From positions 345,906-409,905 of the forward strand of contig CAWEOV010000024.1 of assembly GCA_963810765.1 (NCBI GenBank): a stretch of DNA of 64,000 nucleotides, given 5' to 3'. A program made the translations under genes and the position numbers. Below the pieces are notes generated by a model. The model ran no database searches. It saw only the letters and a program-made list of their open reading frames with translations, and was not told the DNA's origin. Origin of the DNA: an uncultured Verrucomicrobiae bacterium. Lineage in GTDB: Bacteria; Verrucomicrobiota; Verrucomicrobiia; Chthoniobacterales; Terrimicrobiaceae. This document shows, in pieces, positions 3,509 through 41,120 of this stretch; positions within the stretch are counted from its first letter, which is position 1; each line of letters starts with the position of its first letter.

Positions 3509-3515
3509 CGAAGTC

Positions 3516-3551
3516 TATCAACCATCAACTATCAACCATCAACCCTCAATG
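3516..3551. repeat. phased heptamer array (NNTCAAC)x5, right flank of the four-helix-bundle insert
   Basis: TATCAAC CATCAAC TATCAAC CATCAAC CCTCAAT, with TCAAC at 3518, 3525, 3532, 3539 and 3546 (7-nt phasing). The sdhB ATG (3549) lies in the last unit. Confidence 0.8.
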
Positions 3552-7208: not shown

Positions 7209-7340
7209 CGCTCAACATTCAACTCTCAACGTTCAATCAAAAAGCCACGAGCGGCGTTTGAGCGTTGAAAGTTTAACGCTCCACGTCCGGCGAAACTGCC
7301 ACAACTTGAGCGTTGAACGTTGAGCGTTGAACGTTGAAGT
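7199..7340. repeat. inverted phased heptamer arrays: (NNTCAAC)x5 at 7199-7238, (GTTGANN)x3 degenerate at 7256-7276, (GTTGANN)x5 at 7305-7340
   Basis: TCAAC-type units end at 7209, 7216, 7223, 7230 and 7237. GTTGA-type units start at 7305, 7312, 7319, 7326 and 7333. Phasing is an exact 7 nt. This is the same heptamer family as at 3112-3136 and 3516-3551. Confidence 0.8.
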
Positions 7341-9109: not shown

Positions 9110-10777
9110 GTGGGACTGGTTGCACTGTTATTTGTTATCGGGATGGGCACCGCCGTGGCAATCGAACCGGCGCGGTTCGCGGCGATGTATGACGACCCTG
9201 CGGTCTTTGAACATGCGCTCGCGAAAGAATCCGTCGCGCCGCCCGCCGGCCATCGCGTAACTGGGATCACCGTTCCGCACCACCTTGTGGCAGCGGACTT
9301 GATCGCCCGCGGCTTTTATGGCGCTTCAGGCAGCAACTACGAGCGGATCATTCTCCTTTCGCCCGACCATTTTAGGCGGTCGCGCCTGCCATTTGCGACG
9401 ACACACGGAACGTTCGAGACTGTCTTCGGTGATGTCGCGTGCGATGAGGTCGCAGTCGATTTGCTTTTGACAGCGTGTCATAAGGCCGAGGAGTCACGTC
9501 TCTTCGCAAAGGAGCACGGAGTGCACGCAGTGCTTCCCTTCGTCGCGAGGTTCTTTCCGAAAGCGAAGATTGTTCCAATCGCTTTGCGTATTGACTCGAA
9601 ACGCGAGGACTGGCTCGCGCTCGTGGACGCACTGACGCCCCTTGTCGATTCGAAGACGCTGATCGTCCAGTCTACCGATTTCTCACATTACCTCGATCAC
9701 GGCAAGGCGCGGCGTTGCGACCAGCAGACGATGAACGCACTTGCGCTTGGCGATCCTGAAGCGGTCACCCGCCTGCGCCAGCCCACTCACCTCGACTCGA
9801 AAGCCGCACAATTTGTCCATATGGCCTTGCAGCGACGTGTTCACAACGCAAGCCCGATCGTGATCGCCAACCGGAACTCCCAAGCTTATACAAGATTTCG
9901 TCTGGAACAAACCACTAGCTACATCATCCAGGTTTATGAGCCAGACGACCCGCCACCAGCGGCTTGGCCGTCCGGGCCGCGGGAATCCGTATGGTTTTTT
10001 GCAGGTGACGCATTTTTCGGCCGGGGTGTAGCTTCACTGCTTGCACAGCCGAGCCGCGCAGAAGCCGTGCGGAAGGAAGTCATGCGCATCACGCAGGAAT
10101 ATCCGCTGGCGGTGAATCTCGAAGGCGTAATCGTCAATTCTGTGCCGGACCCAAATCGCGTGAAGCGCGCGCTCGTCATGGAGAAGGAATTTACCCTTGG
10201 CTGGCTCAGGGCACTGAACGTCAAGCTTGCGGGTGTTGCGAACAACCACTCTCTCGATGGGGGAGAGGCGGGACTCGAACGAACCGTTCGCGCCCTTGCA
10301 TCTGCAGGCATCGCTTCGGTGCGTGATGGAGAGGTAATCGATGCCGGTCCGTTTCGCGCCGTCGCGATGACGGACCTCAGCAACGTTTCAACGCCGCACA
10401 CAGGCCGGATCACGCAGGAGGCTATCGCGCGACTGCCGCAACCGGAAGCGGACGTGAGGCCGTTGTTGGCCCTTGTCCACTGGGGGACTGAATTCCGGCG
10501 CGAGGCGACGCCGAGGCAAATCGAAGTGATGGATTGGCTAACAGATAGCCCCGTGACGGCGATATTCGGCGCTCACCCGCATGTGGATTCAGGCAGGCCC
10601 GAACCGTGGCGCGCCGGCAACGGGCTGGTCTGTCGCTCGCTTGGCAACTTCCTATTTGATCAGATAAACGGCTCCGGGGCACTCGCCGAAGTGAGGTTTT
10701 TCGAAGATAAGACGTTTGCTGTTCGATGGATTCCGGTTAGAAATCTCCTCAAGGCTGCTCCTACAGGTCCTCGATGA
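9110..10777 (+). CDS. fusion protein: Memo/AmmeMemoRadiSam-B-like N-domain plus CapA-family (PGA_cap metallophosphatase-like) C-domain
   Basis: N-half has ITVPHH, EHGVHAVLPF and STDFSHYL (Memo-type motifs). C-half has FAGDAFFGRG, VNLEG, VANNHSLDGGEAGLERT, VHWGTEF and FGAHPH (CapA-type motifs). Confidence 0.72.
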   Translation: MGLVALLFVIGMGTAVAIEPARFAAMYDDPAVFEHALAKESVAPPAGHRVTGITVPHHLVAADLIARGFYGASGSNYERIILLSPDHFRRSRLPFATTHGTFETVFGDVACDEVAVDLLLTACHKAEESRLFAKEHGVHAVLPFVARFFPKAKIVPIALRIDSKREDWLALVDALTPLVDSKTLIVQSTDFSHYLDHGKARRCDQQTMNALALGDPEAVTRLRQPTHLDSKAAQFVHMALQRRVHNASPIVIANRNSQAYTRFRLEQTTSYIIQVYEPDDPPPAAWPSGPRESVWFFAGDAFFGRGVASLLAQPSRAEAVRKEVMRITQEYPLAVNLEGVIVNSVPDPNRVKRALVMEKEFTLGWLRALNVKLAGVANNHSLDGGEAGLERTVRALASAGIASVRDGEVIDAGPFRAVAMTDLSNVSTPHTGRITQEAIARLPQPEADVRPLLALVHWGTEFRREATPRQIEVMDWLTDSPVTAIFGAHPHVDSGRPEPWRAGNGLVCRSLGNFLFDQINGSGALAEVRFFEDKTFAVRWIPVRNLLKAAPTGPR

Positions 10778-12429
10778 CGTAGGCCTCCTTCCACGAAAAC
10801 TTCCCTGGCACGAGAAAGTGCATTCGGCAACGCGTCGAGATGATCTCGCGACGGTCCGCAGTGGTCAGTCGAATTCGAAAGTTCTGGTAGCTTGAGACCT
10901 CGCTTGCGACCTGAAGCGTAAACCGGTCGTTCGCTCCGGGGGCCACTGTCCGCTTATAGGTGAAGGGCACGACATAGTCCTTTCCTTCGGTTCTCAAAAA
11001 AAGATCGTATTTTCCCGATGATGGCCCTCCTCCCGCCCCAAACTCCGGCCAGAACATGCTGAAGCACTTCACAAGGTGAAACTTCACACGCTTCATCTGC
11101 TTCAAACCAAAATAGTCCGTCCACGCGAGTCGGAATTCGCCCGCTACCAGGCCATACGCTGAGAATTGCTCGCCATCCGACACTACCAGGTTTGGTAATT
11201 TTCTCATTTCGCGCTTCGCGCGGAGCGCAACCGATTCTCGTGAGGGATCGTCGTCCTTTAGGCGTTCGATCGCCGCAATGGCGTCCGCGTCAATTCCGAG
11301 CGTTACCATTGCCCGCGCGAGAGAGAAGGTTGCACGCTCTGAGAACGACCCCAGCTTCTCCAGGAATTGGTAGTCCTCAAAGTTCGGTTTGGCATCGCGA
11401 GGGAGGATATTGAAGGCAACCTCGCAGTCATCTACTCGCCCTGAGCCAAAACTCACGATTTCACAGGTCACACCGCCGTGGAAGTAACTTGCATCCGCAA
11501 GTCCCAGAATCGGTTCAAAATCAGGAACGCTTTCCTCGACGACCGCCTCCGCTTGGTGAATCACCAGCTTTTCGCGTCCAGGGTTGAAGATACGGATGTC
11601 GAGAAAAACGGGAAAGACTCCGACATCAAAACTCTTGACCTCGCCCGATTCGGATTCGCCGATGACCGGTCCTCCTTTTGACCATGCAACCCAATAGGGC
11701 CAAGTGGGTTCTATCACGAGGATGTCGTCCATGAAGCGGCCGCCGTAGGTCATGAAAGATTGGTCGCCCGCTCCAATACCTTCGCTTCTGGAAAGGATAT
11801 TCCCATCGAGCGCATAGCGGCGCACATCCACGCCGAGAATCACGTACGGCGCTGCAGGAACAGGAGCGCCGCGGGGATTGGTGTCCTTGCCCGCCTTCCA
11901 GGTCGAGTTATAGCGGCGGCCATCCGGGTAAATCACGAGACCAGGACCGTCTCGCTCATCGGCAACGAAAGCTCCTTCGAAGACGGCCCCATCCGCGGAG
12001 ACATACCTGCCTGGCCCCTGCATGAGATCGTTCTGAAACGAGCCGCTATAGTAATCGCCGCTTGCGTACCAGGTACTCACCCTTCCCTTCCTTCACATTA
12101 TCGTGCCACTGCCCTGAGTATTTCGCCCCGCTGCGGTAGAGCGCAACACCCGCGCCGTGGCGCCGACCCGATTTCATTTCGCCTGAATAGACGACGATCG
12201 ATTCCTTCCGCTTTTGTGTGGGCTTGAACCATTCCAAGACGCCATTGCCCTCGGCTTCGTGACGGGAATTCACTTTGCCGGACCACGAAAAATCCAGTCC
12301 TCTCTCCCTCTCGGAGGCCCAGACGCGAACTTCCTCATCGAATTCAGATGCGGGATGGACCCTCCATTCCGCGCGAATCGACGCAAGTATGACAAAATAA
12401 ACAAGAGGTTGCAGGCGGCTAATTCTCAT
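10761..12429 (-). pseudogene. exported MORN-repeat protein, tandem paralogue 2, interrupted by a +1 frameshift
   Basis: ORFs 12046-12429 and 10761-12080 are collinear with the intact paralogue 12560-14239. The break is at GKGEY|WY.(S/N)GDYY, and alignment to the paralogue shows one extra G at about 12071-12072. Confidence 0.75.
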
Positions 12430-12559: not shown

Positions 12560-14239
12560 TTATTCCTCAATGACGTAACCTTCCTTCCACGAAAATTTAC
12601 GTGGCACGAGGAAGTGCATGCGGCATCGCGGCGAGATGATCTCGCGGCCGTCCGTCGTTGTCAACCGGATGCGGAAGCTCTGGTAAGTCGAGACTTCGCT
12701 GGCGAGTTGGAGCGTGAACCGGTCGTTCGCTCCGGAGGCAATGGTTCGCTTGTAGGCGAATGGCACCACGTAGTCCTTGCCTTCGGCTTTAAATAGAACT
12801 TCGTATTTCCCCGATGGCGATCCCTCTGCGGCCAACTCCGCCCAGAACAGGCAGAATTGCTTGTTAAACTGAAACTTCACGCGCTTCGTCTGCTTTGAAC
12901 CTAAATGGTCCGTCCATGCAATTCGGACTTCGCCTGCGACCAGGCCCGCGGCGGAAAATTGGCCGTCGTCCGATTCTACGAACTTTGGTAATTTCTTCAT
13001 CTCGCGGGTCGCGCGCGCAACCGATTCTCGTTTCGCCGCCGCCCGCTTCGCCTCTGCCTCCGCCTCTCGTGAGGGATCGTCGGAGAGATGTTCGATAGCC
13101 GCAATGGCGTCTGCGTCGATTCCGAGCGTTTGCAGCGCCCGCGCGAGCGAGAACGTCGCACGCTCTGAGAACGGTTCCAACTTTTCGATGAAATGATAAT
13201 TCGCAAACTCCGGCTTTGAATCGGGAGGCAGGATATTGAAGGCGATCTCGCAGTCATCCACGCGGCTCGAGCTAAAATTCACGATTTCGCAGGTCACTCC
13301 ACCGGGGTTCGAAGTCGCATCCTGGAGTCGCAGGATCGGTTCAAGGTCAGGAAAACTTTCCTCGACGACTGCTTCCGCTCTGCGAACTACCAGCTTTTCG
13401 CGGCCCGGGTTGAAAACGCGAATGTCGAGAAAGACCGGGAAGACTCCGATATGAAAATCCCGGGAGGCATCGTCTTTAGATACGACCGGCCCTCCCTTTG
13501 ACCATGCGACCCAAAACGGCCAATCCGGTTCGATCACGAAGTCTCCATCCGTCCAGCGGCCGCGGTACGTCAAGTAGTATTCGTCGCCACTTCCTGAGAG
13601 GATCTTCCCATCTAGCGCATAGCGACGCACATCCACGCCAAGCATCACGTACGGCTTTGCAGGAACGGGAGCGCCGGCGGGATTGACATCCTTGCCCGCC
13701 GACCATGTCGACGCGTAGCGGCGGCCGTCCGGGTAAATCGCAACCCCGGGGCCGTCCCGCTCATCGGCCGCGAACGTTCCTTCGAAGACGGTTCCGTCCG
13801 CGGAAACGTATTTGCCGGGTCCATGCATAAGGTCGTTGTGAAACAAACCGGCGTAGTAATCGCCGTTCGAATACCAGTACTCTCCCTTGCCTTCTTTGAC
13901 GTTCTCGCTCCATTGGCCGGAGTATTTCGCCCCGCTGCGTTGAAGCGAAACGCCCGTGCCGTGGCGCCGGCCTGCTTTCACCTCGCCCGTGTAGATGACG
14001 CTCGAGGCCCGCTGATGGTCCTCGGTCTTAAACCATTCCAGAACGCCGTAGCCCTCGGCCTCGTGGCGCACATTCACTTTCCCGGACCACGAAAAATCCA
14101 ATCCCCGTTCCTTGTCGGACGCCCAGACGCGGACCTCCTCCTCGAATTCGGACGCTGGATGCACCTTCCAGTCCGCATGCGCCAGGGTGCAAAAAATCGC
14201 AAACGTTACAGAGTAACAGATAAGGCGGCCGATTTTCAT
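12560..14239 (-). CDS. exported MORN-repeat protein with ~400-aa C-terminal domain of unknown function, tandem paralogue 1
   Basis: Start chosen at ATG 14239 (MKIGRLICYSVTFAIFCTLAHA, signal-peptide-like), which overlaps the stop of the upstream WD40 gene (ATGA 14236-14239). MORN units are YSGQW..N.KEGKGEYWYSNGDYYAG.F.NDLMHGPGKY. Confidence 0.85.
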   Translation of the reverse strand: MKIGRLICYSVTFAIFCTLAHADWKVHPASEFEEEVRVWASDKERGLDFSWSGKVNVRHEAEGYGVLEWFKTEDHQRASSVIYTGEVKAGRRHGTGVSLQRSGAKYSGQWSENVKEGKGEYWYSNGDYYAGLFHNDLMHGPGKYVSADGTVFEGTFAADERDGPGVAIYPDGRRYASTWSAGKDVNPAGAPVPAKPYVMLGVDVRRYALDGKILSGSGDEYYLTYRGRWTDGDFVIEPDWPFWVAWSKGGPVVSKDDASRDFHIGVFPVFLDIRVFNPGREKLVVRRAEAVVEESFPDLEPILRLQDATSNPGGVTCEIVNFSSSRVDDCEIAFNILPPDSKPEFANYHFIEKLEPFSERATFSLARALQTLGIDADAIAAIEHLSDDPSREAEAEAKRAAAKRESVARATREMKKLPKFVESDDGQFSAAGLVAGEVRIAWTDHLGSKQTKRVKFQFNKQFCLFWAELAAEGSPSGKYEVLFKAEGKDYVVPFAYKRTIASGANDRFTLQLASEVSTYQSFRIRLTTTDGREIISPRCRMHFLVPRKFSWKEGYVIEE

Positions 14240-17200
14240 TGAGATCGTTGTACGGGATGGTTGGGGACGGCAAGGCCGATGATCTGGCGAGCACGCGACT
14301 TCCATTTTGTTTCGTCCAGATCGAGGATACGGACCGTTCCGTCCTCCGAAGCGGAGAAGATGCGGCCGCCGTTCCACGCAACGGCGGCGACCGGACCCTG
14401 GTGCAGAGGCACCGCGAGACTAGGAACGAGCCCGTCAGTCTCCCAGATGCGCAGGTAGCCGTCCGAACCGGCAGCGGTGATTTTCGAACCGTCCTCCGAA
14501 TTCGCCAGATCGTCCAGAGAGCCGCCGACCGGCAGCGTGCGCGCGAGCGCCGCGCCGGATCGCACGTCCCACAACCGCACCGTGCCGTCGCGTCCGCAGG
14601 ACCCGAGGATCTTTCCGCCAGGCAGAAACGCGAGGCTCGAAACGCCGTCTCCGTGCCCTTGGCTGGCCTCCCGAGGAATTTTCAAGCCCGGCTCCGCGCC
14701 GCCCGCAACGTTCCAAAGCCAGATCTCGCCGCGCGTCGACCCCGCCGCAAGCGTTGCGCCGTCCGAACTCCATGCCAGCCCGAGCGCGTAATCCGGCATC
14801 CTTCCAATGAGCCGCGGCGACGCATTGCTATCCGGTTCCCAAACCTGCACGGCGCCGGTGTGACTGGATGATGCCAGCTCTTTACCGTCTTGCGACCAGC
14901 GCACGCGCCAGACGGTCTGGTCGTTCGCCGCTCCGGGCTCGCCGGGTTTCACGGATCGAACGGGATCGCGCGCCGCGCGCTGCCAGAGATGAATGTCGCC
15001 AGCCTCGTTACCGGAAGCAACTCTCTCCTGCCCGCGCTGCCACGCTAGGCAGAGAACGCGGCTGCCAGCGTGCCAGATTGTGCTGTTGGTGTTGTTCCCG
15101 GCATCCCAGGTGAAAATGTCGCCATGCTCGGAGCCTGCGGCGATTCGCATTCCATCCTCGGAGACGGTGAGTGAATGCAGCGGCGCGCCTTTATCATACC
15201 TGATCACCGGACCGAATGCCGCTGAGGGCCGCCAGATGCAAACCGTTCCATCGTTGCCGCCTGAAGCGAGGTGGTTACCTTCCGCATTCCACGCGATAGA
15301 CAAGACCGGCCCCTTGTGCGCCAGAGTACTTCAGGCGGCGGCGCCTGCGCGTCCGGTGCACCAGAGATCGCCCAAATCCGAACCGTACCGTCAGCGCAGG
15401 CGGCGGCGAGGCTCTGACCATCCGGACTCCAAGCGAGGTCCTGAACCCCGCCCGGCACGTTTGACAAGTTGAAAGGTGCCGCGCCCCTTTTGAGAATGGT
15501 GATGTTTCCATCTGCGTCGCCCGCTGCCAGCATAGGTTCGCCTTGCTTACTCCATGCCAGGCAGCGAATGTTCGCCTGAGTTGCCTCCCGCAGCGGCTGA
15601 GTTCCTCCAGTGCTAGAAATCGCAAAGACGCTTCCCGCTTCAGTCGCCAATGCCAATGTTCCATCCGACGCAAAAGCCAGTGCCGTCACGCGTTCTCCAG
15701 AGGATACGGCTGGCGCCGTCTTCCCGGGATCATCGGCTGGTCCAATGAAAACCTCAACCTGCCTTGCCGCATCGACAAAAGCGACCCTTTGCCCGTCGGA
15801 GGAGACCGCGGCGAGGCGCATGGGTCTGCCCGTTCCAAGCGACTCAGTCGCGTTCACGCCTTGCCTTAGAGCAATAACCTTCCCGTCTTCGCGCTGCGCT
15901 AGCCAAGTGCCGTCCTGGCGGCGGGCGATGCAAAGGATGGTCGGAGCCTCCTCGCTATCGGGAACAAATGAAGGTCCGGAGGCCTCACGGCTCTTCGCAT
16001 CAAGAAGTCGAACGGAACCTCCCGCCGCGGCCGCCAGGACATCGTCCGGCCCAAATTCCAACTCCTGCACGGCGCCTTCAAATCCGGTAAAGGAGGTTTC
16101 CAGCTGCGGTGGCGCCTTGGCAAGGGCGGAAAGAAACGCAGATCGTGTCGTGAAATCTGGATGGGTCGAGAAAGCCCGTTCGAGCAAGTCCAGCGCAGGG
16201 CGGATTTCGCCCCGAGCGAGGTCAAGCGTGGCTTGGTGGACTTGAAAATAGGCATCGGCTTGCGCTCGGCGTTCTGCCGCGCGCTGGTTGGCCAAGATGG
16301 CGATCACACTGCCGATCACCGCCAGGCCAATCAGGAGCGCCGCAACGGTCCCGGCGATCAAGCGGTTGCGCTTGCGCCGCCGCGCGTCTTCGTTCGCATG
16401 ATGTTTTGAGGCTTGGATGAAGCCTGCGGATTCCGTAGCCAATGTTCGCCCGGTTTGGGAAAGCAGCCAGAGAGCATCATCGAGCGGTTTGCCAGGCTGG
16501 ATGAGATACGCCGGGTTCCGGCCTTCCTTTTCCCAAGTGGCGCAAGCCGCTTCGACACGGGCGCGCTGCTTCAGAAACTCCTGGTTGGTATCGAACCACG
16601 CCATCGCTCTTGGCCAGCGCGTAAGGAGGGCTTCGTGGGCGACCGAGACCGTCCGCCGGCCCGCTGCGTCCGTGTCCGAAACAAGCAGCCGCGCGGAAAG
16701 CATCGCCGAGACCAGCTTTTCCGCTTCAGGCGTCGGCGCGACCTCCTCGGACTGAGCGCGGCGCCGGATCGGGACCGTCGTCTCGCCGCGATCTGTCTTG
16801 AAGTTCACGAGCGCGGAAAGAACCGCGTCGACTGCCTTGTCCATTCCGGCGCCGGCTCCCGCACTCGCTACCGCTTCATCAGCTTTTGCGGCGACCACGC
16901 CCTCGATCCCGCGAAATTCCAGATAATCCTCCCAGCGCAGCATTCCATCGCCGCGAGCCTTCTGGCGTTTGTAGAGTTCTTCGAGCGCGAATTCCAGCAA
17001 CGGAAGAACCTGCGGATCGGCTGAGGCAGCGTCGCGAAGCGCTTCGTCGAGGCCTTGCTTGGTTTCGGGATGAGCATCGAACCTTAGTCCTGCAGCTCGC
17101 GCCGGGCGCCGGATGATCTGGCCGAGTTCAACCGGCGCTGGTGGAGGGAGATGATAGGAGCCCGTGCCCTCGGCGAGAGCTAGAAGTTGAGAGAACTCGG

Positions 17201-18547
17201 CCAGTCGTGGAAAAAAGTCGCTCCGCATCGTGACAATAACCACGACTGGATTGCGCCGGGAAAGCGCGGCGAGCATCTCGAGAAATGCGTCCCGCTTCTC
17301 CGTCGAAACCCCCTCCGTAAACAACTCTTCGAGCTGGTCGATCAGCAGAACGAGGCGAGCGACTGGCGGACGCAAATTTTGCAATCGAAGGCGCAGTGCC
17401 GCCGCGTCTTCGGGCCGGTTCTCTTCTTCGCGCTGTCGAACGAGAGCCTCGATATCCGACCGCTGGCGCGCTTGTTCGCGCTCGGACGCCACTCGCAGAC
17501 CACTTCTGATCTCCTCTGGAATAGCTGTGTAGTTGGCCTCGAGCGAATAGGGCGTGGTTCCGTGGCCGGTTAGCTCCGGCAGGGCGGATTCGGCCAGCAG
17601 CGCTTCGCGAGACCGAGGAGCACGTCACCGCCCGCATCGGAAGGCTTCATTATTGCCCGACGCCAAAGCCCTGCTGCCCTCGATGACTCCCGGCTCGGTA
17701 AGGACGGGAAGAACACCGGCTCGGGCCAGGGAGGATTTCCTGAACCCGAGGCCCCCAGCACCAAGAGAAAACTACGAGGATCGTCCTTGTCAGCCTGCGT
17801 CTTGCGGAGTGCTTCAATGGCAGTGCTGACCGCCCCAGTGCGTCCAAAGAACATCGGCGCGTGTTCGAAATCGAAAGGCTCGAGGCCACGAAATGGAGAA
17901 CCTTTCGTCCATGCGGGCTTCTCGGGCGGCGCAAGTGTTCCAGGCGAGACGGCCATCCGCCTTTCAGCGACCTTCCGTAGCTTGATCTCGAAGAGATCCT
18001 GAAATTCGGCGATGGTGTGATATGCGGTGAACGAACCGACGAACGAGCCGTCCTCACTGTCCTTTGTCCACTGCTCGATGAATCGTTTGAGGGCACGCCA
18101 TTGCGCGATGCGTTCGTCGTGGACCTCAGGCGGTTCCGGCTGAAACGATGGAATCGTCTGGTTGATCCAGACGTGCAGCTCGGGCAATCCGTTGCGCTCC
18201 TTCTGACTCGCGAGAGCATGGGTGATTTCGTATTCGGTGCCGGAATTAGCTGGGGAGCCGTTCGGAAGCCGCTGCGAGCCGCCAAGCCGCGAGCCGAGAC
18301 GCGACCAAAGCAAACAGAGGACGACGTCGAAAGTCGCTGTGTTCGGAATCTGCTCCTGAAACGATTTCGAGAAATCGAATGGCTCGTATTCCCAGAAATA
18401 CGCGTCGAGCACGATGCGACCGCTGAACTCCGCATTCAGCCTGGCGATCGCTTCGCGCGCGACCCGGCGTTCGTGAGCCACGTCTCCGGGACTACTCACA
18501 AAAAGTGATACCCTCGAGACATTCAGACTGTGTTTGTCTTCATCCAT
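14236..18547 (-). pseudogene. DUF4062-like domain - P-loop STAND NTPase - single TM helix - WD40 repeat protein, broken by at least 4 frameshifts
   Basis: Three collinear ORFs (17570-18547, 15204-17492, 14236-15303). N-domain is VSLFVSSPGDV...NSGTEYE. Walker A GASGSG(K) is broken near 17736-17738, with further frame changes near 17668-17680, 17600-17608 and 15318-15328. A TM helix LIAGTVAALLIGLAVIGSVIAIL (~16290-16360) follows RRRKRNR. WD40 blades include GTVRLWD and GTVRIWA. Confidence 0.75.
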
Positions 18548-34925: not shown

Positions 34926-35693
34926 GTGAAACGCGACCATGGTCTGCCGGAGAGCGCGGCGAGCTTTCACGCCACACGCTGGACGATCGTCATGAGGGCG
35001 GCGCAAAGTCAGACGCAAGGGGGGGAGTCCGCATTGGCCGAGTTGTGCCGGCTCTATTGGTATCCGCTCTACATTTTCGCTCGGCGCCGGGGGCATACCC
35101 CGGATGACGCCGAGGATTTGACCCAAGGTTTTTTCCTGCACCTGCTGGAAAGCCGGGCGCTTACCGGCGTTGACCGGCTCAAAGGCAAATTTCGGTCTTT
35201 CTTGCTGGCCTCTTTCCAAAACCACCTCTCGGATGCGGTCGACCGTGCACGCAGCCTTAAAAGAGGAGGAGACAAGGAATTTGTACACCTGGATGCAGAA
35301 GAGGCAGAAGAACGCTACCGACTCGAGCCGGTCGAGTCTTTGACAGCAGAAAAGATCTTCGATGCCCGGTGGGCAATGACGGTCCTGGGAGAGGCGCTGA
35401 AGAAGCTCCGCCAAGAGTACGCCATCGCGGGAAAAGCGTCCATATTCGAAGCGCTAAAAGTTTTCCTGGATCCTAATAGCAGCGTCGCCCCACCTTCCTA
35501 CGACGAGGTGGCGAATCGGCTTGAGCTTAGCACCGGCGGGGTCAAGACACTTATCCATCGGTTGCGAAAGCGCTACACCGCCTTGTTGCGGGAGGAGGTG
35601 GGCCGCACGGTGTCAGATCCTGCGGAGATCGACGAGGAGATTCATGCTCTTTGCGACGCCCTGGTTGCATCCGAAGGGCGGTTAGGTCCATGA
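34926..35693 (+). CDS. ECF-type RNA polymerase sigma factor of the Ser/Thr-kinase-associated kind
   Basis: The N-terminus FHATRWTIVMRA, the region-2-like stretch ALAELCRLYWYPLYIFARRRGHTPDDAEDLTQGFF and the region-4 HTH YDEVANRLELSTGGVKTLIHRLRKRY are present. The stop overlaps the kinase start (ATGA 35690-35693). Confidence 0.82.
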   Translation: MKRDHGLPESAASFHATRWTIVMRAAQSQTQGGESALAELCRLYWYPLYIFARRRGHTPDDAEDLTQGFFLHLLESRALTGVDRLKGKFRSFLLASFQNHLSDAVDRARSLKRGGDKEFVHLDAEEAEERYRLEPVESLTAEKIFDARWAMTVLGEALKKLRQEYAIAGKASIFEALKVFLDPNSSVAPPSYDEVANRLELSTGGVKTLIHRLRKRYTALLREEVGRTVSDPAEIDEEIHALCDALVASEGRLGP

Positions 35694-37432
35694 AAACGGA
35701 GGACAGACGCGTCTGCCCGAGTTGCGGTAATGAGTTTTCTGGAGCAGTGGAATTCTGTCCGGTCTGCATGTTGCGCGGAGTTCTGGATGAGGAAACGGAG
35801 TCTTTTTCGGAACAAGGCTTCAGCGAGTCAACGCGCGAGGTGGGAGTGGAAAGGTTTGAGCATTATGAACTCGTCAAGGGCGAAGACGGGAAACCGGTCG
35901 AGTTGGGTCGCGGTGCGATGGGCGTCACTTACAAGGCGTTCGACGTCGATCTGCGATGCCCCGTGACATTAAAAGTCATCAGCGAAAAATATCTCGGAGA
36001 CGAATCGGCGCGGCTTCGTTTTTTGCGTGAAGCGCGCGCAGCGGCGAGCGTCCGCCATCCAAACGTTGCCTCGGTCTTCCACTTGGGCAAGAGCGGCGGG
36101 AACTACTTTTATGCGATGGAGTTTGTGGAGGGGCAAACGCTCGAGAGGCTCATCAGACGCTCCGGCCGGCTTGAGGTAAAGCTGGCGCTGGAAATTGCGA
36201 CGCAGGTCGCCGCCGGTTTGGCTGCCGTGCACAAGCAGAAGCTCGTTCACCGGGACATCAAACCAAGCAACATTATGGTGAGCTTGGATGACGCAGGCGC
36301 TGTGACGGTGAAAATCATCGACCTCGGCCTGGCCAAGGCGGTTAACGAACCAGGCAGCACCCAGACAACGATTTCAATACCCGGAGCCTTTGCAGGGACG
36401 CCAGAGTTTGCCAGTCCCGAACAATTTGTGGGAGCGGATGTGGACATCCGTTCTGATCTGTACTCGCTTGGCGTGACGCTTTGGGAGATGCTGACGGGCC
36501 AGGCGCCATTCCGAGGCTCTCCCACTGAGGCGATGTACCAGCATCAGCGCGTCCCCTTGCCAGTTGAACAACTCAGAGATGTCCCTCAACCGCTCGTCGT
36601 TCTCCTTGAAGTCCTCCTTGAGAAAGACCCGGTGCGACGCTTCCAGAGCCCAGCCGAACTCTTGAAGGTGAAGCCGATGGTAAGGGATGCCATCGAAGCG
36701 GGGAGTCCTCTCATGAAGACGATTCGAGTTTTCGTCTCCTCTACGGGCGATGTCCAAAAGGAGCGGATTCTGGCGGATCGGGTGATCCGCTCGGTTGCTG
36801 CACAATTTAACGTGCCGGTGAGTGCCGCCTTTTCAGGTTTCCAACGCTTGGCAGAAGAAAATGGTGAGTCGAAAACCGAAGCGGAGAATCACGGGACGTT
36901 GGTTCTATGTCCCTATTTTTTGGAGTATCAGAGGTTCCAATCGGGCGCGGGATGCAAGGGACAGATCCAGAACACGGCGGAATTTGATCTGGTGATTTCT
37001 ATCCTTTGGTCCCGCCTCGGTGCGATGCTGGACCCGACCTTGACGATGCCGGATGGAAGCTCACCCGGCTCGGGAACGGAATACGAAGTTGCCTGGGCGC
37101 TGGACCACGCAAGCAAGAATAGAGGCGTTCCGCTGTTGCACGTTTATCGCAACTCTTCGAAGCCGACGCCGCCGTTGGAACCGAAAGAGGAGCGCGAAGT
37201 CTTTGTTCGGCAATGGGACTCGTTGCAGGAGTTCTTTGCGCATTGGGAAAAGGACAGCGAGGGGAACTTCGCCGGGACGTGCAACAACTATCGCGACCTG
37301 CAGGAGTTTGAAGAGCTCTTCCGGGAACATTTCCGTAACTTTTTAGCGGGTCAAGTAGAGCGGGAGACCGGACAGAAAGTCTTGGGCAGGAAAGCGCGCC
37401 GGTGGAAATCCTGTCGGATTATCGCGAATTAG
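35690..37432 (+). CDS. Zn-ribbon - Hanks-type Ser/Thr protein kinase - DUF4062-like domain protein
   Basis: CPSCGN...CPVC; G-loop GRGAMGVTYKA; VTLKVI; catalytic loop HRDIKPSNIMV; DLGLA; SPEQF. From about 36715, IRVFVSSTGDV...GSGTEYE is paralogous to the N-domain of the 14236-18547 gene. Confidence 0.85.
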   Translation: MKTEDRRVCPSCGNEFSGAVEFCPVCMLRGVLDEETESFSEQGFSESTREVGVERFEHYELVKGEDGKPVELGRGAMGVTYKAFDVDLRCPVTLKVISEKYLGDESARLRFLREARAAASVRHPNVASVFHLGKSGGNYFYAMEFVEGQTLERLIRRSGRLEVKLALEIATQVAAGLAAVHKQKLVHRDIKPSNIMVSLDDAGAVTVKIIDLGLAKAVNEPGSTQTTISIPGAFAGTPEFASPEQFVGADVDIRSDLYSLGVTLWEMLTGQAPFRGSPTEAMYQHQRVPLPVEQLRDVPQPLVVLLEVLLEKDPVRRFQSPAELLKVKPMVRDAIEAGSPLMKTIRVFVSSTGDVQKERILADRVIRSVAAQFNVPVSAAFSGFQRLAEENGESKTEAENHGTLVLCPYFLEYQRFQSGAGCKGQIQNTAEFDLVISILWSRLGAMLDPTLTMPDGSSPGSGTEYEVAWALDHASKNRGVPLLHVYRNSSKPTPPLEPKEEREVFVRQWDSLQEFFAHWEKDSEGNFAGTCNNYRDLQEFEELFREHFRNFLAGQVERETGQKVLGRKARRWKSCRIIAN

Positions 37433-40407
37433 GCGAACTGAAAGGTGCGCTTGCCAAGCACGCCGAGGCGGTATTCGGCACGTTGCAACCGCATGAGCAA
37501 AGGGCGTTTCCTTTGGTGATGCGGTATCTGGTTACGTTAAGCCAGGGCGAAGAGGAAGTGCCTAACCGGCGGACGGTGCCTTACCGAGATTTCGTGGCAT
37601 CGGGGAAAAGCGACCATGATCAGAAAATCGGCGCTAAAGGCTTTGTTGATCTATTTGTTGAAAAACGGCTGTTGTTTACAGATACCGATCCGCAGGGTGA
37701 GGTTAACGTGTGCGTTGCGCACGAAGCGCTGCTACGGGAATGGGAACGGGTCAAAGATTGGCTGACCGAGAACCGTGAGTTCCTCCGAATGCGGGACCGC
37801 CTGGATTCCAGCCTGAAGCTCTGGTTGAGCCGCGGAAAGCAGAGGGATGATCTGCTCGGACCGGGACTGCCTCTGGCGGAAGGCGAAAAGCTAGTCCAAG
37901 ACTTTGGGCCATCGCTCAGCCGGGAACAGACTGATTATGTCAACGCGAGCATCACGGAGCGAAAACGGCGCAAACAGGCCCAAGAGCAGATCCGTTACGC
38001 GGTGATGGCCGCGATCAGCGTTCTCGCGATCGTCGCCGGTTTTCAATGGTTCCAGGCTGAGCGCCAGCGTCAGGGCGCGGCCCAAGCGTTTAAATCTGAA
38101 GCACAGGTCACCGCGAAACTGCATGAACAGTTGCGACAGGCGAGCTGGGCAAGCTTCAACCAGGCCGAGCGTCAGTTCCAGCTGGGAGAGTGGCGGGAAG
38201 GCATCGCTCTTCTTGCGCGGGCGATCAAGTTCGACCCGGAAAATCAAATTGCTTCAGAACGATTCTTCCACGAGCTAATCGTTCATCGCGAAAAGGCGCT
38301 GCCACCGTTCATCGCCTCCTTTGAACATCAGGACAGTCTCACTGACGCGGTGTTTAGTCCGGACGGTACTCGGATCCTCACGGCAAGCTGGGACCAAACC
38401 GCCAAGCTCTGGGATGCGGCCTCAGGCAAGCTCGTCGCCTCCTTCGCTCATCAGGGCATCGTCTGGCACGCGGCGTTTAGTTCGGACGGCACTCGAATCC
38501 TTACGGCGAGCGCGGATAAGACCGCCAAGCTCTGGGATGCGGCATCGGGCAAGCTCATAGCTTCCTTTGCTCATCAGGCTATCGTTTACAACGCGGCGTT
38601 TAGTCCGGACGGCACTCGGATCCTCACGGCGAGCGCAGACAAGACCGCCAAACTCTGGGACGCGGCCTCGGGCAGGCTCATCGCCTCCTTCGCCCATGAC
38701 GCCGACGTCAACGACGCGGCGTTTAGTGCAGACGGTGCTCGGATCCTGACGGCAAGCGCGGACCAAACCGCCAAGCTTTGGGATGCGGCCTCAGGCAAGC
38801 TCGTCGCCTCCTTCGCTCATCAGGGTATCGTCTGGCGCGCGGCGTTTAGTCCGGACGGTACTCGGATCCTCACGGCAAGCTGGGACCAAACCGCCAAGCT
38901 CTGGGATGCGGCCTCAGGCAAGCTAATAGCCTCCTTTGCCCATCAGGGTGAGGTCTTCCAAGCGGCGTTTAGTCCCGACGGTGCGCGGATCCTCACGGCG
39001 AGCGCCGACAACACCGCCAAACTCTGGGATGCAGCCTCTGCCAAGCTCATCGCCTCCTTTGCCCATCAGGCTAATGTCTACTACGCGGCGTTTAGTCCGG
39101 ACGGTGCTCGAATCCTGACGGCGAGCGCCGACAAAACCGTCAAGCTCTGGGATGCGGCCTCTGGCGAGCTGATCGCCTCCTTTGACCATCAGGATCTTGT
39201 CTTCCTCGCGGCGTTTAGTCCCGACGGTAGGCGGATCCTGACGGCGAGCGCGGATCAAAGCGCCAAGCTCTGGGATACGCCCTCGGGCAAGCTCGTTGCC
39301 TCTTTTGACCATCAGGATGGTCTCTATTATGCGGCGTTTAGTCCGGACAGTTCTCGGATCTTAACGGCGAGCGCGGACAAGACCGCCAAGCTCTGGGATG
39401 CGGCCTCGGGCGAACTGATCGGCTCTTTTGATCATCAGGACGAAGTCTTCCGAGCGGCGTTTAGTCCGGATGGTGCGTGGATCCTGACGGCGAGCGCGGA
39501 CAAAACCGCCAAGCTCTGGGATGCGGCCTCAGGCAAGCTGATAGCCTCTTTTGACCATCAGGCTAGTGTCTACTACGCGGCGTTTAGTCCGGACGGTGCT
39601 CGGATCCTGACGGCGAGCGCGGACAAGACAGCCAAGCTCTGGGATGCGGCCTCGGGCAAGCTGATAGCCTCTTTTGACCACCAAGATGCTGTCCGATGGG
39701 CGACGTTTAGTCCGGACGGTGCTCGGATCCTGACGGCAAGCTGGGACAACACCGCCAAGCTCTGGGATGCGGCTACTCCGACAGAGATGGCTCGGCAGGT
39801 GAAAGAATCGGGTGGCGCCGCAGGGAGAATAGGCTCCTCCATTTCGATGGCCCGCTCAGCCGCGCTGCAAGTCGAATCGCTCTCCGATATCGCAAGCGGA
39901 CTCCGATTTTCAGATGACGGCGCGCTCGTCGCGGTCAATGAAGAACGCAGATCGAAGCTGACCAAGCAATTAAAGGACTTAGCGCAAGACCTTCAACCCA
40001 ACGCGCGCTTCATACCGTGGTTTTTCAGTACCGGAGGTGAGCAAACGATCTTCCCGGCGAGCGACATCAAAGTTATCGAGTGGGTAGACAACGCCCTTCT
40101 CACGAATCCAACTGTAGCCGAAGAATGGGTGCGGAACGCTTTAATCTTCCTCCCCAATCACCCGTTGCTTCATATCGCGCTGGCGGGGTTTGAAACTGAC
40201 TCCAAGCGCGCTGACTTTCTTCGCTCATTCGGCTTGGTGAGGCTCCCGAAAAACAGCGTTGTCTGCACGCGTGCCAGCGAGATGCTGCTGCCGCAACATC
40301 GTCCCAAACTCGCGCTTGCCGCGGTCGATCAGGCGCTCCTCACCGATCCAACGAACGTATCTGCTCAGCGCCTTCGACTCAAAATCCTCGATGCGGTGAG
40401 CCCATGA
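37402..40407 (+). CDS. helical/winged-helix region - single TM helix - 12-blade WD40 array - C-terminal helical domain protein (STAND C-terminal half without an NTPase)
   Basis: The N-part (LSDYRELGELKGALAKHAEAVF...VAHEALLREWERVKDWL) aligns with the post-NTPase region of the 14236-18547 gene. A TM helix YAVMAAISVLAIVAGFQWF follows RKRRK. The GTG start at 37402 is only the first candidate, and this frame opens at 37339. Confidence 0.78.
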   Translation: MEILSDYRELGELKGALAKHAEAVFGTLQPHEQRAFPLVMRYLVTLSQGEEEVPNRRTVPYRDFVASGKSDHDQKIGAKGFVDLFVEKRLLFTDTDPQGEVNVCVAHEALLREWERVKDWLTENREFLRMRDRLDSSLKLWLSRGKQRDDLLGPGLPLAEGEKLVQDFGPSLSREQTDYVNASITERKRRKQAQEQIRYAVMAAISVLAIVAGFQWFQAERQRQGAAQAFKSEAQVTAKLHEQLRQASWASFNQAERQFQLGEWREGIALLARAIKFDPENQIASERFFHELIVHREKALPPFIASFEHQDSLTDAVFSPDGTRILTASWDQTAKLWDAASGKLVASFAHQGIVWHAAFSSDGTRILTASADKTAKLWDAASGKLIASFAHQAIVYNAAFSPDGTRILTASADKTAKLWDAASGRLIASFAHDADVNDAAFSADGARILTASADQTAKLWDAASGKLVASFAHQGIVWRAAFSPDGTRILTASWDQTAKLWDAASGKLIASFAHQGEVFQAAFSPDGARILTASADNTAKLWDAASAKLIASFAHQANVYYAAFSPDGARILTASADKTVKLWDAASGELIASFDHQDLVFLAAFSPDGRRILTASADQSAKLWDTPSGKLVASFDHQDGLYYAAFSPDSSRILTASADKTAKLWDAASGELIGSFDHQDEVFRAAFSPDGAWILTASADKTAKLWDAASGKLIASFDHQASVYYAAFSPDGARILTASADKTAKLWDAASGKLIASFDHQDAVRWATFSPDGARILTASWDNTAKLWDAATPTEMARQVKESGGAAGRIGSSISMARSAALQVESLSDIASGLRFSDDGALVAVNEERRSKLTKQLKDLAQDLQPNARFIPWFFSTGGEQTIFPASDIKVIEWVDNALLTNPTVAEEWVRNALIFLPNHPLLHIALAGFETDSKRADFLRSFGLVRLPKNSVVCTRASEMLLPQHRPKLALAAVDQALLTDPTNVSAQRLRLKILDAVSP
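38314..39790 (+). repeat. 12 tandem 126-bp (42-codon) near-identical WD40-blade repeats, in frame
   Basis: Unit is ASF[AED]HQxx[VL]xxAAFSPDG.RILTAS[AW]D.TAKLWDAASGKLI. Long nucleotide stretches are shared between units, e.g. ACCGCCAAGCTCTGGGATGCGGCCTC. Confidence 0.92.
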
Positions 40408-40553
40408 TCCGTTCACCGAATCTCTTGTGTTCGGCTTTAATTGCGGGTAGTTTCGACTGAGAGGTGAACCTATTTCAGGGTTCGGGGCTCGTTTGGGCAA
40501 GGAGTAGATTTGCTTTACCTAGGAGGACCGAAAAGAAAGAGGAGGCGTTAGGT

Positions 40554-41120
40554 TTGAAAAGACTCCCACACTTGCTAACTGTGGCTTCCGCGGCAGCGGT
40601 CATTGCCCTCGCTGCGACCAATGCAGTTCGTGCTGCCGACAAGGAAACGTTGGATCCTGCCCCGGATAGCGCAGAAAGGGGGCCGATCCTTCTCGTTCAG
40701 ATCGCCGCTTTCCGGGGAGCGAAAGGCAGTGAGACAGCGAATGTAAACGTAGATAGTAAAGGGGTTATCTTAAATGGGTACGATGCCGTCGCCTTCTTCA
40801 AGCAACGAAAGCCAGTCAAAGGGAATTCCGGAATCGAGAGCACATATCAAGGCGCAACATACTTATTTGCCTCGACAGCGGATAAAGCCGATTTTGACAA
40901 GGATCCCGCAAAGTATGCCCCGCAGTATGGCGGATTTTGTGCCTACGGGGTAGTTAACGGAATACTGAGCAACATCGAAGGTAATCCGGACGCCTTCGCT
41001 GTTTACAAGGGCAAGCTTTATCTCTGCGGGAATCAGGCCGCGTTAAGAGGTTTCAGGAGTAATATCGATAGCAATATCGAAAAGGCAGATACGTATTGGC
41101 GTCAGTTAACTGGGTCTTAG
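40554..41120 (+). CDS. secreted YHS-domain protein
   Basis: TTG 40554 lies 8 nt after GGAGG. Signal peptide LKRLPHLLTVASAAAVIALAATNAVRA. GYDAVAFF...ATYLFAS...YGGFCAYGV...GKLYLC is typical of YHS-domain proteins. Confidence 0.72.
   Translation: MKRLPHLLTVASAAAVIALAATNAVRAADKETLDPAPDSAERGPILLVQIAAFRGAKGSETANVNVDSKGVILNGYDAVAFFKQRKPVKGNSGIESTYQGATYLFASTADKADFDKDPAKYAPQYGGFCAYGVVNGILSNIEGNPDAFAVYKGKLYLCGNQAALRGFRSNIDSNIEKADTYWRQLTGS

Follow-up and report, generated by a model that had tools for sequence, protein, structure and literature searches.

The window, a 64,000-nucleotide stretch of DNA from an uncultured Verrucomicrobiae bacterium, carries an array of 12 tandem WD40 blades in which an almost fixed beta-propeller framework is combined with a few hypervariable residues that are predicted to lie on the propeller's top face. 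We consider it probable, if some way short of certain, that the array serves as ligand-sensing beta-propeller module in a large signaling protein of soil Verrucomicrobiota, and that the copy in the window has been disabled. Intact relatives join such arrays to a STAND NTPase and a Ser/Thr kinase, and in this copy the NTPase core and four of the blades have been lost.

Tandem Repeats Finder (TRF) reports one array, at 38309-39773, with a period of 123, 11.9 copies, 81% matches and a score of 1676; it also lists a super-period of 369, and it finds no comparable tandem repeat elsewhere in the window. Read in frame from 38314, the array holds exactly 12 units within the open reading frame (ORF) 37402-40407, and the Pfam WD40 profile (PF00400) matches 12 stretches of the product with E = 6.3e-114. 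An earlier note on this DNA had described 12 WD40 units and listed the residue pairs that flank a conserved V/L in each, and the same pairs are recovered in this register (DS/TD, GI/WH, AI/YN, AD/ND, GI/WR, GE/FQ, AN/YY, DL/FL, DG/YY, DE/FR, AS/YY and DA/RW). The unit itself measures 41 rather than the 42 aa given there, and the description of the units as near-identical was overstated, as pairwise identity averages 80% in nucleotides (67-91%) and 76% in amino acids. The longest exact repeat within the array is 81 nt (38352-38432 = 38844-38924), shared by blades 0 and 4 at an offset of 492 bp, or 4 units. H5, T23 (S25), D27 and W33 are invariant in 12 of 12 units. Diversity per codon is highest at unit positions 8, 11, 10 and 7, followed by 19, 28, 4, 39, 41 and 26. 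The proposal that the blades differ mainly at four residues needs qualifying: positions 7, 8, 10 and 11 do lead the ranking, but they contribute only 35% of the pairwise amino-acid differences, while the top ten (with 4, 19, 26, 28, 39 and 41 added) contribute 70%. Across 1673 blades of the wider family, entropy peaks at positions 4, 8, 10 and 11. Y, W, F, R, H, N and D are frequent among the variable residues of the predicted top face.

Targeted mutagenesis by a diversity-generating retroelement was considered as a source of this variation and rejected, as no reverse-transcriptase domain occurs among the 31 larger ORFs scanned and there are no A-biased codons. Variation in the hypervariable codons extends to all three positions, and these codons are not of the AAY type. 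TRF found no second tandem copy of the unit in the window; a dispersed single template repeat was not searched for.

The location of the variable residues was read from an AlphaFold2 (AF2) model of residues 236-1001 of the 1001-aa product, built with 37 aligned sequences, in which each unit forms four strands and the predicted local distance difference test (pLDDT) score over the array is 90-97. In unit numbering, DSSP assigns positions 40-41 and 1-4 to strand d, 5-8 to the d-a loop, 9-14 to strand a, 15-19 to the a-b loop, 20-25 to strand b, 26-28 to the b-c turn, 29-34 to strand c, and 35-39 to the c-d loop. The d-a loop and the beginning of strand a thus hold positions 7, 8, 10 and 11, and the invariant Asp of the b-c turn has positions 26 and 28 on either side of it. 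The interaction hotspots R1-2, R1 and D-1 of WD40 proteins can be read from the motif [VLI]-R1-R2-[VLI] and from the residue that precedes the Asp of the tetrad (Wu et al. 2012, PMC3419727). Applied through V9-x10-x11-A12 and x26-D27, this rule makes position 8 R1-2, position 10 R1, position 11 R2 and position 26 D-1. The mapping draws on secondary structure (DSSP of the model) and on the published sequence rule; by it, the variable positions are predicted to be the top-face hotspots of the WD40 fold, outside the propeller core. The earlier note had suggested placing the variable sites on a propeller model, and they come out on the top face rather than in the core. Bottom-loop positions 15-18 and 35-39 are much more conserved than the hotspots, even though they are exposed. 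The best solved match to the array is 2YMU (7e-127 by sequence; 6e-39 by fold, at 43% identity), with the Apaf-1 propellers next; Foldseek TM-scores are low because of inter-propeller geometry.

The hypervariable codons also stand apart in their rate of change. By Nei-Gojobori counting among the window blades, the framework codons show a proportion of synonymous differences (pS) of 0.32-0.35, depending on which codons are excluded (dS 0.42-0.47), and a proportion of nonsynonymous differences (pN) of 0.06-0.09. The four codons 7, 8, 10 and 11 have a pN of 0.55 (dN about 1), so that these sites are more diverged than the synonymous sites of the framework, which is the comparison that the earlier note had set for its own reading and which that reading passes. 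When 36 related arrays are pooled, pN exceeds framework pS only at codons 8, 10, 11 (R2) and 26. Young arrays (those of the window and of the related loci L001, L006 and L033) have a hypervariable pN of about 0.55 against a framework pS of about 0.3-0.4, a ratio of 1.5-1.8, whereas the median ratio over the 36 arrays is 1.05, older arrays being saturated in both classes. Between the window and its orthologues L002, L020 and L021, pN at the variable codons is 0.17-0.19, with a framework pS of 0.20-0.25 and a framework pN of 0.04-0.05, and residues have changed at 16/48 hypervariable positions versus 57/444 others (Fisher p = 8e-4). Taken together, these counts indicate that change at the variable sites is at least four times as fast as in the remainder of the blade and proceeds at the neutral rate or above it.

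Alignment with the orthologous loci L001 and L002 reveals that the gene carrying the array has been broken. L001 is 97-99% identical to the window and L002 about 77-86% identical. Compared with both, the window is missing a segment of 988 bp, which would lie between 'RRWKS' and 'SDYRELGEL', a disruption that the earlier note had missed. The deletion joins '...CGGTGGAAATCCTGTC' to 'GGATTATCGC...' at a GTC microhomology, across which the exact breakpoint is ambiguous. 'RRW' to 'LRWSDY' spans 330 aa in six intact homologues, and the missing segment comprises nSTAND1 profile positions ~1-246, including the Walker A motif GASGSGKSS. Only profile positions 247-378 of 379 are covered in the window, compared with 1-378 in the full-length homologue P0001 (Pfam), and the P-loop NTPase core (Walker A and B) that intact relatives possess is absent. 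As 988 is not a multiple of three, the deletion shifts the frame by 1 and leaves two overlapping frames, with 31 nt in common; after 'RRWKS' the upstream frame runs out of frame to a stop. GTG 37402, at which the downstream ORF is drawn, is merely its first mechanical start and has an AGGA 10 nt upstream. The copy in the window is most likely a pseudogene, judging from this sequence comparison, and the downstream frame, still open over 3 kb, makes a recent one most likely. The deletion junction and the intact allele both gave 0 hits in JGI metagenomes, a result that discriminates neither way.

The array itself has been shortened. L001 has 16 blades, and the window contains L001 blades 0-8 plus 13-15, its 12 blades matching those of L001 at 93-100% identity across all 123 nt and in the same order. 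The blastn offsets between window and L001 differ by 492, or 4 x 123, across a chimeric blade 8 whose first ~113 nt match L001 blade 8 and whose last ~38 nt, together with the next blade, match L001 blade 12/13; the crossover lies within a 29-nt tract common to both donors, at about 39383-39411. Sixteen blades are also counted in the outgroup arrays L002 and L021, and 15 are detected in L020; the longer array is therefore the ancestral one, and it is the window that lost four, by what the alignments indicate was in-register recombination. A comparison of repeat number between strains or long reads had been advised in the earlier note; set beside the 97-99% identical contig L001, the window has 12 blades to its 16, and a chimeric blade marks the junction. 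With the ATPase core and four blades lost, the locus should not be annotated as a working receptor.

This four-blade deletion with its chimeric blade is direct evidence of recombination; the ongoing concerted evolution proposed in the earlier note is overstated, and the evidence for homogenization of the array is weak. Third-position identity in the framework is 0.75 within the window array versus 0.71-0.74 to other arrays, those of other genomes included, and each window blade is closer to its positional orthologue than to any other blade of its own array. Paralogues of the same metagenome-assembled genome (MAG) have no blade in common at more than 89% identity (maximum 0.89). Many of the changes that separate the window from L001 fall on one unit position in more than one blade (nt 82 A>C in 0 and 3; nt 55 G>A in 2 and 4; nt 66 G>C in 2 and 5; nt 78 G>C in 5 and 6), which could reflect either micro-conversion or long-read polishing error. 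Positional orthologues retain many blade-specific residues, such as AIYN, ADND, ASYY and D[AT]RW; the central blades differ. The last 2-3 blades (DEFQ - ASYH/ANYH - DTRW) recur over many paralogues and genomes in L002-L037, for example in L013, L015, L022 and L030. The recurrence of terminal blades beside differing central ones suggests that another constraint acts on the terminal blades, perhaps the closing of the propeller or contacts to the C-terminal domain.

A homology search returns thousands of relatives, many of them 'WD40 repeat proteins' of about 1683 aa from soil Verrucomicrobia MAGs. The hosts of the family are Chthoniobacterales-like MAGs, and there are several paralogous loci per Verrucomicrobial MAG. 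The non-repeat part is matched by 19,115 clusters at 50% identity with E <= 1e-3 and by 80 with E <= 1e-30, and among 120 homologues 14 blades is the commonest count, then 15 and 16. The full-length homologues P0105 and P0107 run from a Zn-ribbon and kinase through a ~230-aa domain, a complete nSTAND1, a hydrophobic helix and a linker to blades of 41 aa and a ~200-aa C-terminal domain; some other members of the family lack the kinase. As read from these sequences, the intact architecture is (Zn-ribbon + Ser/Thr kinase), flavodoxin-like domain, nSTAND1, transmembrane (TM) helix, linker, 14-16 WD40 blades and a helical C-terminal domain. P0001, P0105 and P0107 share the tripartite layout of an N-terminal effector or adaptor, a central NTPase and a C-terminal repeat sensor, and the NTPase of P0001 matches nSTAND1 at 1e-88, whereas its NACHT match, at E = 0.02, falls short of the cut-off. 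The three STAND parts are collinear in the window with the center deleted, and the array, being part of a STAND multidomain protein, occupies the place of the sensor in proteins of the NOD-like receptor (NLR) type. In L001 (3235-3490) and L002 (3012-3558), 1-nt indels split arrays and NTPase regions into several called genes; owing to such indels in long-read contigs, P0085, P0104, P0107 and P0109 end in out-of-frame 'RQALGCGLGQA...' tails.

In the window, the 5' half of the gene is collinear with P0105 and P0107. Its kinase is intact (Pfam Pkinase, 4.9e-45), and the ~250 residues beyond it are unassigned by Pfam. The ~230-aa post-kinase domain, which starts with IRVFVSSxGDV in full-length P0105 and P0107, has zero Pfam matches even at E <= 1; its AF2 model is poor (pLDDT 63), and Foldseek returns only flavodoxin/WrbA-like matches at 2e-4 to 1e-2, with a TIR domain no higher than rank 46. 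We tentatively assign it, at low confidence and as a fold class only, to the flavodoxin-like a/b folds. The product of the 3' half comprises the C-terminal helical part of nSTAND1, a TM helix that is kept in the family consensus, a helical linker, the 12 blades and a C-terminal domain; an exact look-up of the whole 1001-aa sequence found no record. The C-terminal domain matches no Pfam family at E <= 1 and is kept in Verrucomicrobial relatives, with 65-90% amino-acid identity in most loci and 51% in L036. Immediately upstream of the receptor gene is a gene for an extracytoplasmic function (ECF) sigma factor, whose DAED motif, read off the sequence, is intact. The sigma stop codon and the likely kinase ATG (MKTEDRRVCPSCGNEF) overlap by 1 nt at 35691-35695, and the same start is used in P0107; ATG 35693 is probably the true start of the 5'-half ORF, the TTG 35651 of the ORF list being too early. 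The overlap suggests translational coupling, so the two genes probably form one operon, and the sigma-kinase gene order is also found in the orthologous locus L002.

From these observations we propose a tentative account of how the intact protein would work. Each blade keeps an almost fixed framework, which includes the tetrad positions His5, Ser/Thr23, Asp27 and Trp33 and strands b, c and d, and the blades differ at the predicted top-face residues 8, 10 and 11, plus 7 and 4, and at D-1 (position 26). The array would in this way present a blade-by-blade mosaic of contact residues, a composite binding surface that would normally lie on a pair of propellers. Ligand bound to the top face may throw the STAND switch, which would in turn engage the kinase and probably the sigma factor. 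The hydrophobic helix with its K/R-rich N-flank (ERKRRKQ) suggests, by the positive-inside rule, that the propellers would be extracytoplasmic, which would make the protein more like the receptor kinases with propeller ectodomains than like cytosolic NLRs. New specificities could arise through point substitutions at the hotspot codons and through gain, loss and chimerization of blades by way of the conserved framework tracts. In the window this system would be disabled, its NTPase core deleted, its gene split into two frames and four of its blades gone.

The coordinates of the locus are collected in Table 1. Directly downstream of the array gene lies a gene of the YHS-domain (seleno)protein family (40464-41120, +), which is syntenic in L001 and L002. 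The window holds a second nSTAND1-WD40 gene at 12560-18547 (-), with ORFs at 17570-18547, 15204-17492 and 14236-15303 and at least three frame shifts spread over the 100 or so codons that surround Walker A (GASGSG|N..., AAAA -> AAA); it is either a decayed STAND gene or the site of local sequence error. Its blades at 14.2-16 kb give no DNA repeat signal and are dissimilar in sequence, in keeping with their description as divergent in the earlier note. MORN-repeat ORFs lie downstream of it (12560-14377 and 10761-12080). Elsewhere in the window, short arrays of about five heptamers (ATCAACC/CTCAACG; inverted TTGAACG/TTGAGCG) occupy intergenic leaders at 3515-3549, 7203-7237 and 7306-7340, immediately upstream of the start sites 3549 and 7334 and next to the gene on the minus strand that ends at 7208.

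Table 1 Features of the WD40 array locus, in window coordinates.
Feature	Position	Strand	Basis or content
ECF-type sigma-70 factor gene	34926..35693	+	Pfam Sigma70_r2/r4_2/ECF, NCBIfam TIGR02937
Receptor gene, 5' half, broken	35651..37432	+	Zn-ribbon, Ser/Thr kinase (aa 84-332), flavodoxin-like domain (low confidence), nSTAND1 start 'RRWKS'
Receptor gene, 3' half, open frame of 1001 aa	37402..40407	+	ORF list, Pfam, sequence reading
988-bp deletion junction	37405..37420 (breakpoint within 37411-37414)	+	blastn against L001 and L002, junction alignment
nSTAND1 C-terminal winged-helix/helical part	37411..37845	+	PF20703, aa 4-148, E = 6.3e-29
Predicted single TM helix, YAVMAAISVLAIVAGFQWF	37996..38052	+	Top Kyte-Doolittle window of the protein, 1.84
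Helical linker of three helices, ahead of the first blade	38053..38313	+	AF2 helices, model residues 2-62
WD40 array, 12 tandem 123-bp/41-aa blades	38314..39789	+	TRF, register, Nei-Gojobori, AF2, 2YMU match
Chimeric blade 8, junction of the four-blade (492-bp) loss	39298..39420	+	blastn offsets, blade lists, nucleotide alignments
C-terminal domain, ~205 aa, mostly helical	39790..40404	+	AF2 helices, pLDDT 60-93

Several observations weigh against a ligand-sensing membrane receptor, and they shape the alternatives that have to be considered. The ratio of nonsynonymous to synonymous change (omega) at the variable codons is about 0.7-0.9 between positional orthologues, so that positive selection is unproven and constraint may simply be relaxed. 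The hotspot alphabet is restricted, N and Y making up 59% of position 10, for example. The proposed extracytoplasmic topology depends on a single hydrophobic segment and the positive-inside rule. PADLOC recognizes only the generic kinase domain, which gives no link to a defense system. The intact DAED motif sets the sigma factor apart from the ECF43 group, for which dependence on phosphorylation is proven (PMC8999054). Finally, the fully open downstream frame and the possible Shine-Dalgarno (SD) sequence and GTG at the junction mean that a product without NTPase could be made. It is conceivable, if decidedly unlikely, that the array is a neutral by-product of the young amplification of one blade, its variable sites drifting as unconstrained surface without blade-specific recognition. 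The orthologue omega, which does not rise above 1, and the median ratio of 1.05 over 36 arrays are what drift would give, and repeated amplification from a single blade is a known origin of beta-propellers (PMC9218822, PMC5587647). Drift would not, however, readily confine variation to experimentally defined hotspots while the bottom loops stay conserved, nor would it explain why young arrays are already saturated at these codons (pN about 0.55 versus pS about 0.3-0.4), why their alphabet is that of binding sites, or why AIYN, ADND and ASYY are kept between species.

Another reading, which we hold to be unlikely, is that the protein is a cytosolic NLR-type immune or non-self receptor like HET-E/D. 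Its propeller would recognize proteins of invaders (phage) or allogeneic proteins, the STAND domain would oligomerize, and the N-terminal kinase or a TIR-like domain would bring about growth arrest or death, with the paralogues as a diversifying immune repertoire. In its favor are a STAND NTPase that carries repeats at its C-terminus and a module of effector type at its N-terminus; the several paralogues per genome; the inactivation, at the P-loop, of both nSTAND1 genes of the window, which one would expect of costly immune genes; the likeness of the hypervariable pattern to that of the four codons selected in the fungal HNWD genes; and the definition of nSTAND1 in work on predicted counter-invader and conflict systems (PMC8195603). 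The conserved TM helix between NTPase and propellers speaks against a cytosolic receptor, as does the operon link to an ECF sigma factor, which points to transcriptional signaling. The N-terminal domain is flavodoxin-like at low confidence, and TIR is not established. The neighbors of the array locus are chromosomal housekeeping genes, with no defense-island genes among the window ORFs scanned. A search of known defense systems with PADLOC gave only the generic kinase models PD-T4-6 and mad6 and a WD-like stretch of 'HEAT-ARM_XIII', and no system was assigned. The broken state of the gene invites two further explanations. The 12 blades, the NTPase deletion and the frame shift would all be artifacts of assembly or polishing if the true locus were an intact 16-blade gene, which strikes us as very improbable. 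L001 and L002 are long-read assemblies with evident 1-nt indels inside the arrays, the four-blade loss breaks in a 29-nt identical tract where collapse is possible, and the recurrence of window-L001 differences at the same unit positions is what mis-polishing would give. Yet the 988-bp deletion lies outside the repeats with a microhomology of 3 nt only, so repeat collapse is no explanation for it; blades that differ by ~20%, with a longest exact repeat of 81 nt, are resolvable by most assemblers; and the 12 blades match L001 closely in an unchanged order. Alternatively, the split could be functional, yielding a soluble protein of kinase and flavodoxin-like domains and a membrane-anchored WD40 protein restarted at GTG 37402 that acts as a decoy, a co-receptor or a blade reservoir for recombination with intact paralogues. 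In favor of this, which we regard as quite improbable, are the 3-kb frame that stays open past the frame shift, the AGGA before the GTG, the 31-nt overlap with the upstream ORF, and the fungal NWD pseudogenes that keep stop-free WD arrays beside a ruined NACHT (PMC1805685). The same nucleotides are, on the other hand, ordinary coding sequence in intact homologues, so the SD and GTG may be fortuitous; paralogues have no near-identical blades in common and thus no sign of blade exchange; and the 97-99% identity to an apparently undeleted relative means that the open frame may merely reflect a recent deletion. The sensor module of a membrane-spanning signaling protein, disabled in this copy, remains our preferred interpretation.

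The type of array is already known, and the present locus adds a well-populated Verrucomicrobial family, with thousands of metagenomic members, to the highly repetitive (HR) WD40 STAND sensors. The same top-face hotspot codons vary here as in fungal HET-E/D, where the NTPase and effector domains are unrelated, a clear case of convergence on a single propeller surface. The TM helix, together with the linkage to kinase and sigma factor, hints at a sensing route undescribed for NLR-like proteins, and this membrane-spanning STAND-kinase reading is the sole part of our interpretation that could be truly new. We can push it further and picture a putative multi-paralogue 'NLR-receptor-kinase' hybrid at the cell surface, in which NTPase-dead copies serve as open-frame blade reservoirs or decoys, a notion we offer as a long shot. 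If it were true, these would be hybrid receptors whose variable propellers face the periplasm or the outside and whose NTPase switches a fused kinase and an ECF sigma factor.

Among known systems, the closest are the HR prokaryotic WD40 proteins, which have a conserved framework and diverse predicted top-face hotspots (Hu et al. 2017, PMC5587647), and WRAP of Nostoc punctiforme (PDB 2YMU), a highly repetitive propeller attached to a STAND NTPase (PMC9218822). The window array shares with them 41-aa tandem blades, high internal identity, more than one propeller and the link to STAND, and, as in the HR proteins, its framework is conserved and its diversity is at R1-2, R1 and D-1. Beside the HR threshold of identity >= 0.7 over eight contiguous repeats stand, by simple pairwise counting, a mean of 0.76 and some pairs at 0.68 within any eight contiguous blades. 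On balance we regard it as a new member of this class. It differs from WRAP in its lower internal identity (76% in amino acids, pairwise minimum 0.63-0.68), in having four to six variable positions per blade rather than one, and in its setting: an NTPase of the nSTAND1 clade, an array with a TM helix ahead of it and a helical C-terminal domain behind, an N-terminal kinase and a host among the Verrucomicrobiota.

The HNWD genes of Podospora anserina (HET-E, HET-D) have four selected codons, the pairs 7/9 and 25/27, in the d-a loop and b-c turn (PMC1805685); their blade number is unstable, and pseudogenes with a ruined NACHT keep stop-free WD arrays (PMC1805685). As in those genes, a STAND NTPase is followed by similar WD40 repeats, a few hypervariable top-face codons flank conserved residues, recombination changes the number of blades, and the multigene family includes copies with a ruined NTPase and an open WD array. 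The resemblance to HET-type NLRs drawn in the earlier note is a good analogy in structure, though there is no HET or NACHT domain here and the TM helix is unlike a cytosolic NLR; its reading of the blades as a variable recognition surface is a sensible one that the analysis supports in part. The window protein has no HET match, a Ser/Thr kinase and flavodoxin-like domain at its N-terminus, nSTAND1 instead of NACHT, and 41-aa units. Its main variable cluster is in the d-a loop and strand a (8, 10, 11), with a weaker one in the b-c turn (26 family-wide, 28 minor); repeat identity averages 80% and reaches at most 91% in nucleotides, compared with >80-100% in the fungal genes. Exchange between paralogues is not detectable here, nor is positive selection formally shown. 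We therefore describe the array as analogous to that of HET-E/D, and as not homologous in NTPase or effector.

Apaf-1 offers a further likeness, a STAND NTPase with tandem C-terminal propellers that, in Apaf-1, bind the activating ligand; it differs in that its blades are divergent and not hypervariable, the protein is cytosolic, the effector is a CARD, and the NTPase belongs to another clade. PknD of M. tuberculosis is the type of a receptor Ser/Thr kinase with an extracytoplasmic beta-propeller, formed by NHL blades. The order of kinase, single TM helix and C-terminal propeller is the same in the Verrucomicrobial protein, which differs in having WD40 rather than NHL blades and a flavodoxin-like and STAND module of ~700 aa between kinase and TM helix. 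ECF sigma factors whose genes adjoin those of Ser/Thr kinases form a known class regulated by phosphorylation (PMC8999054), and the locus in the window resembles them in that the kinase gene lies immediately downstream of the ECF sigma gene.

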